Source of the DNA: Patescibacteria group bacterium
GTDB taxonomy: Bacteria; Patescibacteriota; Patescibacteriia; UBA10025; JBIOWE01
DNA: 64,000 bases
Assembly: GCA_044868145.1 (NCBI GenBank)
Contig: JBIOWE010000004.1
Location: 203,197 to 267,196, forward strand
Reading direction: 5' to 3'
Of this stretch, positions 16,717-53,646 are shown piece after piece. Both the position numbers and the translations under genes were made by a program. Each line of letters starts with the position of its first letter. Positions within the stretch are counted from its first letter, which is position 1. The notes below the pieces were generated by a model. It was not told where the DNA came from. It did not search any database and worked only from the letters and a program-made list of their open reading frames with translations.

Positions 16717-17115
16717 TTATTTTCCGAATAGTTGTTTTACAAGCATGCCGAGATCGGAAAATGAAAAAAATAGAAATATAAACGCAATAGTAAATGGAAC
16801 AGTCCGATTCGGGACAACGCGTGGAAACTTATACGCTAAGAGATAGCAAGCGCCGGCTAGTCCTAAGAAGAATAAGCCTGATAGCAAGTGGGGGTCAAGC
16901 ATTCTTAGGGCGCTGAATGCATGAAAATCAAACATACTACCAGTGCGTTCGTATGAGCGTCCCCAGAAGAAGACGGCGAGGCAGAGTGGCACGAATGTTA
17001 ATGCGGTGTAAACTGGGCCCGTGGCTTTTGGGAACCTTGCAGGTACGGCCCAAGCAAGAAATGCAATGGTTAAAGCAAATAGTTGCGCAATTGGATTCAG
17101 CATGAAATCCAGCAT
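16717..17115 (-). CDS. Hypothetical integral membrane protein (132 aa, about 4 TM)
   Basis: ORF with several hydrophobic helices. No recognisable motif. Confidence 0.5.
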   Translation of the reverse strand: MLDFMLNPIAQLFALTIAFLAWAVPARFPKATGPVYTALTFVPLCLAVFFWGRSYERTGSMFDFHAFSALRMLDPHLLSGLFFLGLAGACYLLAYKFPRVVPNRTVPFTIAFIFLFFSFSDLGMLVKQLFGK

Positions 17116-17291
17116 AACTCCCTCCTCATTTATTGGTTTTGAGTTTTCTTCGTGTAGCTAAAGATTGTCAGAATTTCAACGTAATCTGCGTACGTTAGTT
17201 TCTATTGGGTTTCCTCCTTTGTTATTGGTTGATGTCAAAGATCGCTATTGCAAGGATAGAGAAAAAAATACGTTTTGTCCAGAAATCTGCT

Positions 17292-17560
17292 CACCCACCA
17301 TTTCTCAATTTTCGTCAGCACCAAACCCTCGCAATATCTGCAGTCAAGAGAGTTATTCTAAGGTACGGTTAAGGGATGAGCCTGAATCGTCCTCGGAATA
17401 ACGCCCATGCTTGTCGTGACTGCAGGTAATTGAAAGGGTTGTTTTTAAAGAAATGGTGGGTGGGTTTGTCGTGCCTGTCCGCCGCAGCGTAAGCAGTGGC
17501 GGAACTGCAGGTTTACAAACAAAACGCCTCGGAGTTCATTTCAAGGGCGTTTTTTATTTG
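17292..17560 (+). ncRNA. Candidate structured ncRNA: nested long hairpin of about 171 nt (6S-like architecture), an extra hairpin, and a terminator-like end
   Basis: Nested complementary pairs read from the sequence: 17292-17305/17449-17462 (14 bp), 17338-17346/17417-17425 (9 bp) and 17352-17358/17396-17402 (7 bp). There is a further hairpin at 17474-17512. A GC stem (AACGCC/GGCGTT, 17523-17552) is followed by TTTTTTATTTG. The surrounding 525-bp gap has no convincing ORF. Strand and RNA class are uncertain. Confidence 0.35.
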
Positions 17561-17641
17561 TATTTTTGTCGAACAAGACATCGTATCATACAATAATTAT
17601 CTTGTCAAGGGTTAAGAGGAATGGTACGATGATGGCACGCT

Positions 17642-19138
17642 ATGACCGTCATATTGGAACAATTGAAGAAACGCGTAGACGCTGGCAGTCTTTTTTTTCC
17701 ATTGTTTGAAAAAGAAAAGCCTGAACAAGCAAGCGCATGGCAGATTCTTGACCGAGACGCTCGTCTTGCGGTCAAACGGTCGCTTGGCCATCATTTCACC
17801 GGAAAGCTCGGGGAATCGCACGACATTTTTCTGCGTAGCAAGCGACCCGAAGCTGTTGTTCTTATTGGTCTTGGCCAAAAGAAAGATTGGACCACGCGAC
17901 GGTTTATTCTCATCAGCCGTAAACTCGTCGCGCTCGCAAACAAAAACAAGCAACAAGAAATCGCGGTTCCATTCGATCCAATGGTTCCGGCGAGCGCAGA
18001 GCAAGCTCGCGCCGTACAGTCCTTTGTCGAAGCTCTCCTGATGGCGCAATACGATTTTCGAAGCTATAAAGAACTGCCAAAGCACGGTTGGCCGGACGTT
18101 CGTCGTGTTCGCATATTGTCCGATCACCTCCATAAAGACCGTAAAGCTCAAAGCGCGGTGAAGATGGGAGCAGTGATTGCCAGTGCGGTTAATCATTGTC
18201 GTGACCTTGCGAATACGCCTGGCGGCGACATGACGCCCCGCTTGCTCGCCGAGGACGCACTCAAGACGGGCAAGGCAGCGGGCTTTCGCATCAAAGTACT
18301 TGGCCCAGCGGAGATGAAACGTCTAAAAATGGGCGCCATTCTCGGCGTGGCACGCGGCAGCGTGGAACAAGCGCGGTTCATTATCATGGAATATCGCCAT
18401 GGCGGGTCACAATCACCCATCATATTCGTCGGCAAGGGCGTAACCTTTGATACAGGAGGTCTGAATATTAAGCCGGAGAACTCCATGCTCGATATGCACA
18501 TGGATATGAGCGGTGGAGCAGCAGTGATCGGTGCGCTCGAAGCCATTGCGAAGCTCCGACTCCGCGTGAATGTCATTGGACTGGTGCCAGCAGTGGAAAA
18601 TATGCCCTCAGGGTCGGGTTATCGGCCTGGTGACCTGTTACGATCCATGTCCGGCAAGACAATTGAAGTGAAAAACACCGACGCGGAAGGCCGGGTTATT
18701 CTCGCCGACGCCTTGACCTATGCAAATCGATACAAACCCTCGCACGTCGTTGACCTCGCAACCCTGACTGGCGCGGCAATGGTCGCGCTTGGGCAGCACG
18801 CGGCCGCGTTGCTCACATCCGATGAGCGCTTCGCCAGCCTGTGCCAGGAAACCGGTGAGACGAGTGGCGACTATCTGTGGCGATTACCTTTGTGGGAAGA
18901 ATACGAGGACGAGGTAAAGGGAACATTCGGCGACGTGTCTAATACTGGCAAGACACGATACGGTGGCGCGATTACCGGCGCGATGTTTCTCAAGCAATTC
19001 GTCGGCAAGTACGTATGGGCGCATCTCGACATCGCGCCAACGATGACATCCGTAGATGGCCAGAATCTTGCGAAGGGCGCGACTGGCACGGGCGTTCGCT
19101 TCCTTGTTGAGCTTGCATCGAGACTGAGCCTCAAGTAA
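17642..19138 (+). CDS. pepA: Leucyl aminopeptidase (M17 family)
   Basis: M17 catalytic-domain motifs (VGKGVTFDTGG, NTDAEGRVILADAL). Confidence 0.92.
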   Translation: MTVILEQLKKRVDAGSLFFPLFEKEKPEQASAWQILDRDARLAVKRSLGHHFTGKLGESHDIFLRSKRPEAVVLIGLGQKKDWTTRRFILISRKLVALANKNKQQEIAVPFDPMVPASAEQARAVQSFVEALLMAQYDFRSYKELPKHGWPDVRRVRILSDHLHKDRKAQSAVKMGAVIASAVNHCRDLANTPGGDMTPRLLAEDALKTGKAAGFRIKVLGPAEMKRLKMGAILGVARGSVEQARFIIMEYRHGGSQSPIIFVGKGVTFDTGGLNIKPENSMLDMHMDMSGGAAVIGALEAIAKLRLRVNVIGLVPAVENMPSGSGYRPGDLLRSMSGKTIEVKNTDAEGRVILADALTYANRYKPSHVVDLATLTGAAMVALGQHAAALLTSDERFASLCQETGETSGDYLWRLPLWEEYEDEVKGTFGDVSNTGKTRYGGAITGAMFLKQFVGKYVWAHLDIAPTMTSVDGQNLAKGATGTGVRFLVELASRLSLK

Positions 19139-23133: not shown

Positions 23134-23393
23134 AAAAACGAAAAAAGTGTTTATCGATCCCCATAGATATAAACACCTTCATATCTGAAGTTATTCGTGC
23201 TGGTTTTTGTTTTGTGTTTTTGAGACCGCTTTGGTCTGAAAACTCCGTTGAAGGTCTTGGGAGTCGATTTTTATTTTTGTTTGTGGAACAACAAGTGTTC
23301 TACTATGTATGATAGCAAATTTTTTCCGCGTTGTCAATGGCATCGAAACATGATAGCATACAGAAATAGAGACGCCAGCTGTCATAGGATAGA

Positions 23394-30737: not shown

Positions 30738-30809
30738 TGGGCGAGGATGGAGTCGAACCATCGCCCCCGTGTTTATAAGACACGTGCTCCACCGTTGAGC
30801 TACTCGCCC
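30738..30809 (-). tRNA. tRNA-Ile (anticodon TAT, i.e. UAU, decoding AUA). Unusual for bacteria. No CCA encoded
   Basis: Manual fold of the minus strand: acceptor GGGCGAG/CTCGCCC, D-arm GCTC-AACGGTG-GAGC, anticodon stem CGTGT/ACACG with loop CTTATAA (U33 and A37 present), T-arm GATGG-TTCGACT-CCATC. Confidence 0.7.
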
Positions 30810-42739: not shown

Positions 42740-42843
42740 CGCTTGACATTAAGTAGGCTTTTTGCTAGATTGGCTCATTAGCCCTTTTATAAAATAAACA
42801 AGGAACATAGTGGCCAAGTAATTTCTACATGTAAGGAGGACGC

Positions 42844-49900: not shown

Positions 49901-50035
49901 AATTGACAACAGATATTTGGTATGATAGGCTCTTTTGTAGAAGTAGCCTCTTCCTTGACGCAAAGAAATATTATCAAATCTAAAGGTCGGCAGGCTTGAA
50001 AGGCTATCTTTTTTAGAGAAACTACTTAAGAATTC

Positions 50036-51292: not shown

Positions 51293-51411
51293 TCCCTTAA
51301 GTGACCTTTGACAATGAACATGTGACAGGAACCTGGTATGTAACCCATACCAGTCGGGAACGTCATAGTTGAAGCAATGAGCGATGGTGAATGCCATCCT
51401 TATTGTTTCTT

Positions 51412-52921
<1,510 letters not shown>

Positions 52922-53115
52922 AGGGAGAATAATGATTGTTTGTCGACATCAGCTCTGCTGATGACTTTAGTTCGTGGGCGTTCCCATTCTTGTCACATTT
53001 TCATTGCCAAAACCTCGACACGTTCGAGGTAAACCAAAACACATTGGCTTTACAATGCCAATGTTTTTTGTTAGCATGGAACAGTAATTGGCAAAATGAC
53101 CCCGCATAAAAATTT

Positions 53116-53190
53116 GGGTGCGTAGCTCAGTGGTAGAGCACGTCACTGATAATGACGGGGTCGGAGGTTCGATCCCTCCCGCACCCACCA
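53116..53190 (+). tRNA. tRNA-Ile (anticodon GAT), CCA encoded, in the 16S downstream spacer
   Basis: GGGTGCGTAGCTCAGTGGTAGAGCACGTCACTGATAATGACGGGGTCGGAGGTTCGATCCCTCCCGCACCCACCA. Anticodon loop CTGATAA. Confidence 0.9.
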
Positions 53191-53196
53191 ACCCCA

Positions 53197-53440
53197 AATT
53201 TTGTACGGGGCAAGTAATGACGAGGTTTAAGGTCTCAGGCCTGTCCCGTAAAAACGAGCATAGCGAATTTTGTGCGGGATTCGAATCCTGAGCCGCCCAC
53301 CGAGGGTGAAAAGAGCGCGCTTGCCCCGCAGGCGAGCGACGTAAAGTCGCGTTGCGACCACGTCGCTCTACGCGAAGCGAATTGTGCGGGGTCACTGATA
53401 ATGACGAGGTCGTCCCGCCAAGGCGGACCGTACCCACCAG
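53197..53440 (+). repeat. Three tRNA-Ile-derived degenerate repeats (AATTTTGTRCGGGG...TAATGACGAGGT) flanking a stem-loop-rich 150-nt insert that contains a GGATTCGAATCC T-loop-like palindrome
   Basis: Copies start at 53197, 53266 and 53379. The third reproduces the tRNA-Ile anticodon arm (GTCACTGATAATGAC) and 3' terminus (ACCCACCA) but has a non-tRNA hairpin in place of the T-arm. Strong hairpin GAGCGACG...CGTCGCTC at 53325-53369. Confidence 0.5.
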
Positions 53441-53467
53441 TGAGGATTATTATAAAAACCACAAAGT

Positions 53468-53539
53468 GCCGAGGTAGCTCAGTGGTAGAGCGCTGCCCTG
53501 AAGAGGCAGGCGTGGCCAGTTCGATTCTGGCCCTCGGCA
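53468..53539 (+). tRNA. tRNA-Phe (anticodon GAA), no CCA encoded
   Basis: GCCGAGGTAGCTCAGTGGTAGAGCGCTGCCCTGAAGAGGCAGGCGTGGCCAGTTCGATTCTGGCCCTCGGCA. Anticodon stem CTGCC/GGCAG, loop CTGAAGA. Confidence 0.85.
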
Positions 53540-53646
53540 CTTTGTGGTTCTTTGTTTAAGTAAGCATCTTCTCAATTCTGGCAGTTCATTGGGTCGAGGA
53601 GGCACCCCGACGTAAGGAGGGTAGCTTCGCAACTGTATAACAAAAA

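Follow-up and report, generated by a model that had tools for sequence, protein, structure and literature searches.

Canonical 6S RNA is a rod of 160–200 nt in which an outer closing stem leads to a large 5′-central bulge, where the product RNA starts, and then to an apical stem (PMC8414754). Known product RNAs have GG at positions 4/5 or 5/6, an A lies directly 3′ of the template start, and the neighbourhood of the 6S gene is conserved at family level (PMC8414754). A literature search returned no paper tying 6S RNA to the CPR/Patescibacteria. To our knowledge almost no regulatory RNAs have been described from these bacteria, which have tiny genomes. Here we set beside 6S RNA an element from a 64-kb window (the whole stretch of DNA analysed), which is placed in the Patescibacteria (CPR) by its pepA gene. 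As judged from its conservation, the element is a real structured RNA that is uncatalogued in Rfam and comes so far from one Patescibacteria clade. We propose tentatively, and with clearly less than even confidence, that it is a single-copy structured-RNA gene, probably on the minus strand, whose rod acts as a 6S-type RNA.

The hairpin and the gap upstream of pepA

The hairpin lies in an intergenic gap next to pepA (Table 1), which had been described as free of ORFs and is very nearly so, as it holds nothing but short ORFs that are unconserved and have no Pfam match. The original prediction had drawn one long hairpin from three nested complementary pairs between 17292 and 17462; all three are present and the hairpin folds far beyond shuffled sequences. 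The minimum free energy of this stretch on the plus strand is −74.5 kcal/mol versus −40.6 ± 4.1 kcal/mol in dinucleotide shuffles (z = −8.3, 0/200 shuffles), and that of the 269 nt from 17292 to 17560, with both 3′ hairpins included, is −119.2 kcal/mol (z = −9.6). With z values of −8.3 to −9.6 in the suggested folding check the fold is exceptional, and the observation of a hairpin well beyond chance is confirmed. The reverse strand of 17292-17560 reaches −102.5 kcal/mol (z = −7.7), the plus-strand fold of the window being 17 kcal/mol better than that of the minus strand.

Table 1. Features of the pepA locus, in positions of the window
Feature	Position	Strand	Description
Gap between flanking genes	17116-17641		526 bp; minus-strand ORF on one side, pepA on the other
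Hydrophobic ORF	bordering the gap at 17115	minus	132 aa; no family match
pepA	17642-19138	plus	M17 leucyl aminopeptidase
Rod-shaped hairpin	17292-17462	probable sense minus	171 nt; from folding
Closing stem	17292-17305 / 17449-17462		perfect, 14 bp
Nested stem	17336-17346 / 17417-17427		9-11 bp; ATCTGCAGTCA / TGACTGCAGGT
Shorter stem			7-8 bp; GTTATTC / GGAATAAC
Conserved core of rod	17323-17440		covariance model R2, 109.9 bits on plus; R3, 103.6 bits on minus
Invariant bulge	17407-17416		minus 5′-CGACAAGCAU-3′ (ATGCTTGTCG on plus); one-sided, 10 nt, identical in 7/7 loci
Invariant helix	17417-17426 (5′ arm, minus) with 17337-17346		CCUGCAG(Y)CA / UG(R)CUGCAG
Second hairpin	~17474-17512		window-specific
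Terminator-like stem	17521-17553		followed by TTTTTTATTT; plus-strand T-run 17554-17563
Predicted RNA promoter	17608 to 17580	minus	−35 TTGACA 17608-17603; 17-nt spacer ending TGa; −10 TACGAT 17585-17580
pepA promoter	17602-17630	plus	TTGTCA-17-TGgTACGAT; −10 box ends 11 nt before ATG 17642

The additional hairpin that had been placed next to the rod is likewise present in the window. It appears to be a duplicated arm of the rod (TTGTCGTG..CTGCAGGT) with a GC hairpin inserted: 17411-17427 corresponds to 17466-17477 plus 17504-17512, the arm reading TTGTCGTG(A/C)CTG...ACTGCAGGT. It is absent in 6/6 homologous loci. The terminator-like stem folds on both strands, and neither it, in its strong form, nor the second hairpin is conserved as such in the relatives. 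At the position equivalent to 17521-17553 a small hairpin with the motif CCCUUGAAA occurs in loci L001 and L172 and not in the other loci.

Searches for known RNA families gave little. At gathering scores an Rfam 15 scan of the window reported rRNA and tRNA only, and the same scan of seven related loci yielded nothing relevant and no 6S RNA. At the permissive threshold of E ≤ 10, both strands of 17050-17700 gave three chance-level matches, with no 6S, SRP, RNase P or riboswitch among them; a weak His_leader match corresponds to the terminator-like stem alone. In L001 and L174, too, neither strand gave a relevant Rfam match at E ≤ 10, to 6S or to any other family. The Rfam test that had been suggested for the 6S assignment therefore went against it (no 6S match on either strand of three homologues at E ≤ 10), and the scans bear out the earlier remark that the sequence carries no signatures of RNase P, SRP or tmRNA. 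For lack of an Rfam match or of the neighbour genes they require, T-box, retron and omega-RNA elements were ruled out along with SRP, RNase P and tmRNA. In a scan of a viral collection the invariant 23-mer found no match.

Some features elsewhere in the window may be recorded here. Genes for tRNA-Ile(GAU) and tRNA-Phe(GAA) come after a 16S rRNA gene at 51410-52919 (region 51410-53540), and a 23S gene is absent from the whole 64-kb window. Because the 16S gene is in the window with no 23S gene within 64 kb, the rRNA genes of this genome seem to be unlinked. In other CPR lineages (L168, L170) pepA and pilin genes are closely followed by a 23S gene. ARAGORN also predicts a tRNA-Ile with anticodon UAU on the minus strand (30738-30809), an uncommon means of reading AUA codons in bacteria.

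Conservation, synteny and covariation within one clade

The nearest pepA proteins in genome, metagenome and 5.8-billion-protein collections are just 47–59% identical to that of the window, and because of this the intergenic DNA is not plainly alignable. Homologues of the element were sought by folding of pepA-upstream regions, then with a covariance model and then with a clade-specific pepA profile. The folding step led to a Kerfeldbacteria contig (L001, PEXW01000041) with the same hairpin, which shares long identical stretches with the window: ATCTGCAG(Y)CAAGA ... CCCATGCTTGTCGTG(R)CTGCAGGT. A covariance model of the core (R2) detected no further element among ~160 pepA loci; R2 matches were obtained via the contigs of individual pepA proteins (L162/L163 and L164). 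A profile built from four pepA proteins set apart a distinct clade (P0121-P0138) that scored 758–837 bits, all other proteins scoring 706 bits or less, and the three further clade loci retrieved (L172, L173 and L174/L175) all carried the element. The core of ~100–120 nt was thus found at 55.8–115.8 bits in 7/7 distinct clade loci retrieved (the window, L001, L162, L164, L172, L173 and L174), whose pepA proteins are 47–56% identical to that of the window. It was absent from ~165 pepA loci of other lineages in a covariance-model search.

The surroundings are conserved in the order VanW, minus-strand gene, element, pepA, RuvB (the L173 contig ends before the VanW position), and the element lies between the minus-strand gene and pepA in 7/7 loci. 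In other CPR lineages the region upstream of pepA holds tRNA genes in place of the element. A pattern search and a seven-sequence model (R3) found one copy in the 64-kb window. The minus-strand gene encodes a 220–235-aa family with a hydrophobic N-terminus after the RNA in L001 (2687-3343), L162 (1955-2632), L173 (242-946) and L174 (1924-2589), all on the minus strand; the window lacks this family and has an unrelated hydrophobic protein of 132 aa in that position, and searches of Pfam and NCBIfam gave no match for any of the proteins encoded downstream on the minus strand. Two other stretches were recorded during the comparison: a very GC-rich, strongly folding insert of ~250 nt between RNA promoter and rod in L164 (2740-2900), and a structured-looking stretch of ~300 nt between a tRNA gene and pepA in L168 (360-660), a different CPR lineage, which has no Rfam match at gathering score.

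The original prediction had named a lack of compensatory changes in orthologous regions as evidence against the hairpin. In the seven-sequence core alignment such changes were found under both strand models. With the plus-strand structure 90.9–95.9% of the cells are paired and 9–19 pairs have changes on both sides; with the minus-strand structure 94.1% of the cells are paired and 16 pairs have double changes. Not one of 500 column shuffles reached the observed values, and sliding the partners by 1–3 columns reduced pairing to 27–53%. As the element passed this test of compensatory change, the hairpin is, by the evidence of the alignment, a genuine structured non-coding RNA element.

Read on the minus strand, the rod consists in order of the 14-bp closing stem, a basal loop, middle stems, the invariant helix, the bulge, a G.U-rich helix and an apical stem-loop. 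It is 171 nt long in the window and 145–200 nt in the relatives, and the layout of closing stem, bulge and apical stem-loop is kept in 7/7 loci. The terminal stem is conserved in its pairing and not in its sequence, and the apical stem-loop covaries with no conservation of the apical sequence. By contrast with these parts a stretch of 20–25 nt is invariant across the seven loci. In the invariant helix eight of nine pairs are unchanged and one covaries, C-G in six loci becoming U-A in the window. Beyond the bulge, U/C changes opposite G preserve pairing in the G.U-rich helix (GGGGG / UCUUC). The bulge CGACAAGCAU is unpaired in the minus-strand consensus fold and in each individual minus-strand fold, and is a candidate protein-binding site or product-RNA template.

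Promoters, strand and competing readings

In the window the minus-strand promoter is a 10/12 match with TG and takes first rank in a generic promoter scan; the RNA is predicted to start at ~17574-17573 (conserved G/UUC). A minus-strand TTGACA-N14-TGnTAnnnT sequence aimed at the rod is found at the same relative place in 7/7 loci, with a spacer that is 17 nt long in all seven and not conserved in sequence. The −10 box is TAAGNT in five loci, which matches TATAAT at 3/6 positions and goes uncalled by the generic promoter scan. The strict pattern occurs four times in the window versus 0.02 expected. The other three sites are at 23309-23337 (minus), 42743-42771 (plus) and 49903-49931 (plus); no long ORF is obvious after the two plus-strand sites, from which further unannotated RNAs might be transcribed. 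A relaxed pattern, TTGnnn-16/17-TGnTAnnnT, occurs 20 times in 128 kb (both strands of the window) and exactly twice in each of the seven gaps of ~400–540 bp, once on the minus strand towards the rod (with a perfect TTGACA) and once on the plus strand directly before pepA. The pepA promoter is on the right-hand side of the RNA promoter and diverges from it, the −35 boxes of the two overlapping in the window. It lies 6–49 nt before the start of pepA or overlaps the called start in 7/7 loci, the end of its −10 box falling between 49 nt upstream of the called start and 10 nt inside it. In the window and in L162 pepA is nearly leaderless; the ATG of the window's pepA, 11 nt past the −10 box, has no ribosome-binding site. 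The pepA start of the window is overlapped in another frame by a short ORF (ATG 17629, stop 17709) that has a good AAGAGGA site.

A relaxed-pattern promoter on the plus strand to the left of the rod was found in 0/7 loci; the best candidate there by eye in the window is TTGCAA-15-TACGTT, with a short spacer. Because the sole conserved promoter from which the hairpin could be transcribed lies on the pepA side, we consider it probable that the RNA is read from the minus strand, opposite to the earlier proposal. The plus-strand unit of hairpin, hairpin and terminator put forward there had probably been read backwards, as the conserved promoter faces it from beyond the ‘terminator’. That terminator (17523-17560) does have its stem and T-run on the plus strand; it is not conserved, and on the minus strand it becomes a 5′-proximal hairpin. 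On the minus strand a terminator is called by the tool directly after the rod in L173, and U6 (L001) and U7 (L172) directly follow the closing stem, with no such U-run in the window and L164; terminator-like hairpins on the plus strand lie to the right of the rod in the window, L001 and L172. It should be noted that where a hairpin is nearly strand-symmetric, even a convincing terminator on one strand is compatible with a gene on the opposite strand.

Structure alone does not decide the transcribed strand. The window has the lower free energy on the plus strand, L001, L164 and L173 have it on the minus strand, and the other three loci show about equal values; the RNAalifold consensus is −52.7 kcal/mol on the minus versus −49.9 kcal/mol on the plus strand. 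In the inner helices cells with G.U (which pair on the plus strand only) number 7 versus 6 with A.C (G.U on the minus strand). G.U pairs give the minus strand the better pairing in the outer stem and in L164's middle helix.

The opposite strand sense, as a plus-strand small RNA made of the rod, the second hairpin and an intrinsic terminator or as a plus-strand leader of pepA, is very unlikely on these grounds. The better plus-strand fold of the window speaks for it, as do the stem at 17521-17553 with U6AU3, which makes a good terminator, a weak hairpin followed by U5-6 to the right of the rod in L001 and L172, and the constant position of the rod beside pepA; against this, the second hairpin and the strong terminator are confined to the window, no plus-strand promoter is conserved upstream, and the conserved minus-strand promoter sits between rod and pepA. 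A count of 21 G.U versus 6 A.C cells in the core also favours the plus strand, but it comes from an alignment fitted to the plus-strand model and falls to 7 versus 6 when three loop-adjacent pairs are dropped. The leader version, already raised in the original prediction, is disfavoured further by the divergent promoter that pepA has of its own at its start in 7/7 loci. A leader peptide on this strand, AUG CUU GUC GUG (MLVV...) with a stop at codon 9 in 4/7 loci, was rejected: it has no ribosome-binding site and no synonymous changes in seven sequences, its frame runs for 11 to >60 codons in the other three loci, and the strand is probably wrong. That the two strands fold almost equally well across the homologues, and that a perfect 14-bp terminal inverted repeat closes a long imperfect palindrome, would also suit an element acting as DNA or a mobile repeat, such as a MITE, a REP-like palindrome or a cruciform or operator between the divergent promoters. 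This seems to us highly improbable, since the element is single-copy in 64 kb with no target-site duplication or flanking direct repeat, keeps a fixed syntenic position in seven genomes whose flanking pepA protein is just ~50–60% identical, has a terminal repeat conserved in pairing and not in sequence, and shows RNA features in its invariant one-sided bulge and G.U-tolerant covariation; a repeat or DNA palindrome was rejected on its single copy, synteny and invariant asymmetric bulge.

If the minus strand is the sense strand, the element might be a cis-acting 5′ leader (riboswitch or protein-binding attenuator) of the small membrane protein gene that follows it, the promoter giving one mRNA in which the rod, with a U-run in several relatives, would be a conditional terminator or control translation. 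A minus-strand gene does follow the rod in 7/7 loci at a distance of 31 to ~176 nt, no second promoter of the TGnTAnnnT type lies between rod and gene in the seven loci, the rod of L164 ends ~20 nt before the GAGGAG ribosome-binding site of the gene, a U-run follows the rod in L001, L172 and L173, and the invariant bulge could accommodate a ligand or a protein. The downstream genes, however, fall into at least three unrelated groups (the 220–235-aa family in four loci, unrelated genes in the window, L164 and L172), and their lack of Pfam or NCBIfam matches means that no functional coherence is demonstrable; moreover, the U-run is missing in the window and L164, the terminator-like signals vary by locus and strand, and there is no conserved anti-terminator pairing, a candidate alternative pairing with the duplicated CTGCAGGT arm occurring in the window only. 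We therefore hold such a leader to be unlikely. Slightly less unlikely, though still improbable, is a minus-strand RNA acting in trans in some other way, as a protein scaffold or sponge or through CGACAAGCAU as a seed against AUGCUUGUCG-like translation starts. It shares the structural and promoter evidence of the 6S-like reading, the absolute conservation of 20–25 nt suits sequence-specific recognition, and the complement of the bulge contains AUG. On the other side, the window has 5 complementary sites with no more than one mismatch versus 5.2 expected, none of which falls at the start of a gene, the locus is linked to no candidate partner protein, and small-RNA seeds usually lie in less elaborate structures.

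A possible 6S-type role and comparison with known RNAs

For the 6S-type RNA that we tentatively prefer, three things are observed directly (the conservation of the structure, that of the divergent promoter pair, and the lack of an Rfam match), and from the start of transcription at the promoter onward, strand included, we infer the following. The sigma70-type extended −10 promoter at 17608 to 17580, back-to-back with the pepA promoter, would start transcription at ~17574, and its TTGACA −35 box together with the extended −10 suggests strong expression. The predicted minus-strand transcripts are ~190–340 nt long; that of the window would begin with an A-rich leader and pass through the 5′-proximal hairpin and the window-specific hairpin into the rod (17462 to 17292), to end at the U-run after the closing stem in some relatives or to continue into the next minus-strand gene in others. 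The rod would then mimic an open promoter and bind the housekeeping RNA polymerase holoenzyme, as 6S RNA does, and the 5′ bulge with the helix 5′ of it could serve as the template for a short product RNA, 5′-GUCGUGGCUGCAGG-3′, the synthesis of which would free the polymerase. Product RNAs of 13–20 nt beginning GUCGUGGCUG or AUGCUUGUCG are predicted.

Several details can be compared with the known product RNAs. The proposed template start of the element is directly followed on its 3′ side by an A, and the predicted product RNA has GG at positions 6/7, not at 4/5 or 5/6. When the template arm was blocked in folding, the AGC of the bulge re-paired with the GCU of the freed arm in 6/7 sequences, which loosely recalls the rearrangement of 6S RNA. 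The bulge is on the 5′ arm solely in the minus-strand reading, where the adjoining G.U-rich helix could open; as the plus-strand reading puts the bulge on the wrong arm, the 6S layout fits a minus-strand RNA alone. The family is seen in one narrow clade, where a housekeeping 6S RNA would be expected more widely, and this narrow range could reflect rapid divergence. That the element is a 6S RNA, or an RNA polymerase-sequestering analogue, of a CPR lineage, diverged beyond the reach of standard models, with a minimal one-sided bulge and an invariant product-RNA template, is less likely than not. If true, it would mean that even reduced cells dependent on a host retain an RNA decoy for the global control of RNA polymerase. 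The RNA may be the missing 6S-type regulator of the CPR or a new class with an invariant recognition site of 20–25 nt, and either outcome would give a testable handle on transcription control in organisms not yet grown alone.

Among known systems, the bacterial small SRP (4.5S) RNA is also a single long hairpin with conserved internal loops that is encoded once per genome; the element differs from it in having no GNRA tetraloop or domain IV loop motifs and an unconserved apical sequence, and it does not match the Rfam SRP models. Riboswitch and attenuator leaders likewise place a conserved structure between promoter and gene, in some members as a hairpin with a U-run, whereas the element has non-homologous downstream genes, no alternative pairing, no Rfam match, and no multi-helix junction or recognisable aptamer. 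From 6S RNA (ssrS; RF00013) it differs in that the Rfam model is unmatched on either strand, in a bulge of just 10 nt that is one-sided, and in an invariant stretch of 20–25 nt that exceeds the usual conservation of 6S RNA at comparable divergence; in known 6S RNAs the bubble is larger or the bulge faces a hairpin. Because the model is unmatched and the bulge is short and one-sided, we do not file the element as a member of the 6S family. What stands of the earlier 6S assignment is the size and the bulged rod shape: like 6S RNA, the element is a rod of ~170 nt with an apical stem-loop and small loops in its outer closing stem, and it has a conserved bulge on the 5′ arm if read from the minus strand. 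It further resembles 6S RNA in a strong housekeeping-type promoter, in family-level synteny and in its single copy (B. subtilis has two 6S RNAs). The element is thus 6S-like in form, and a 6S-like function is plausible.
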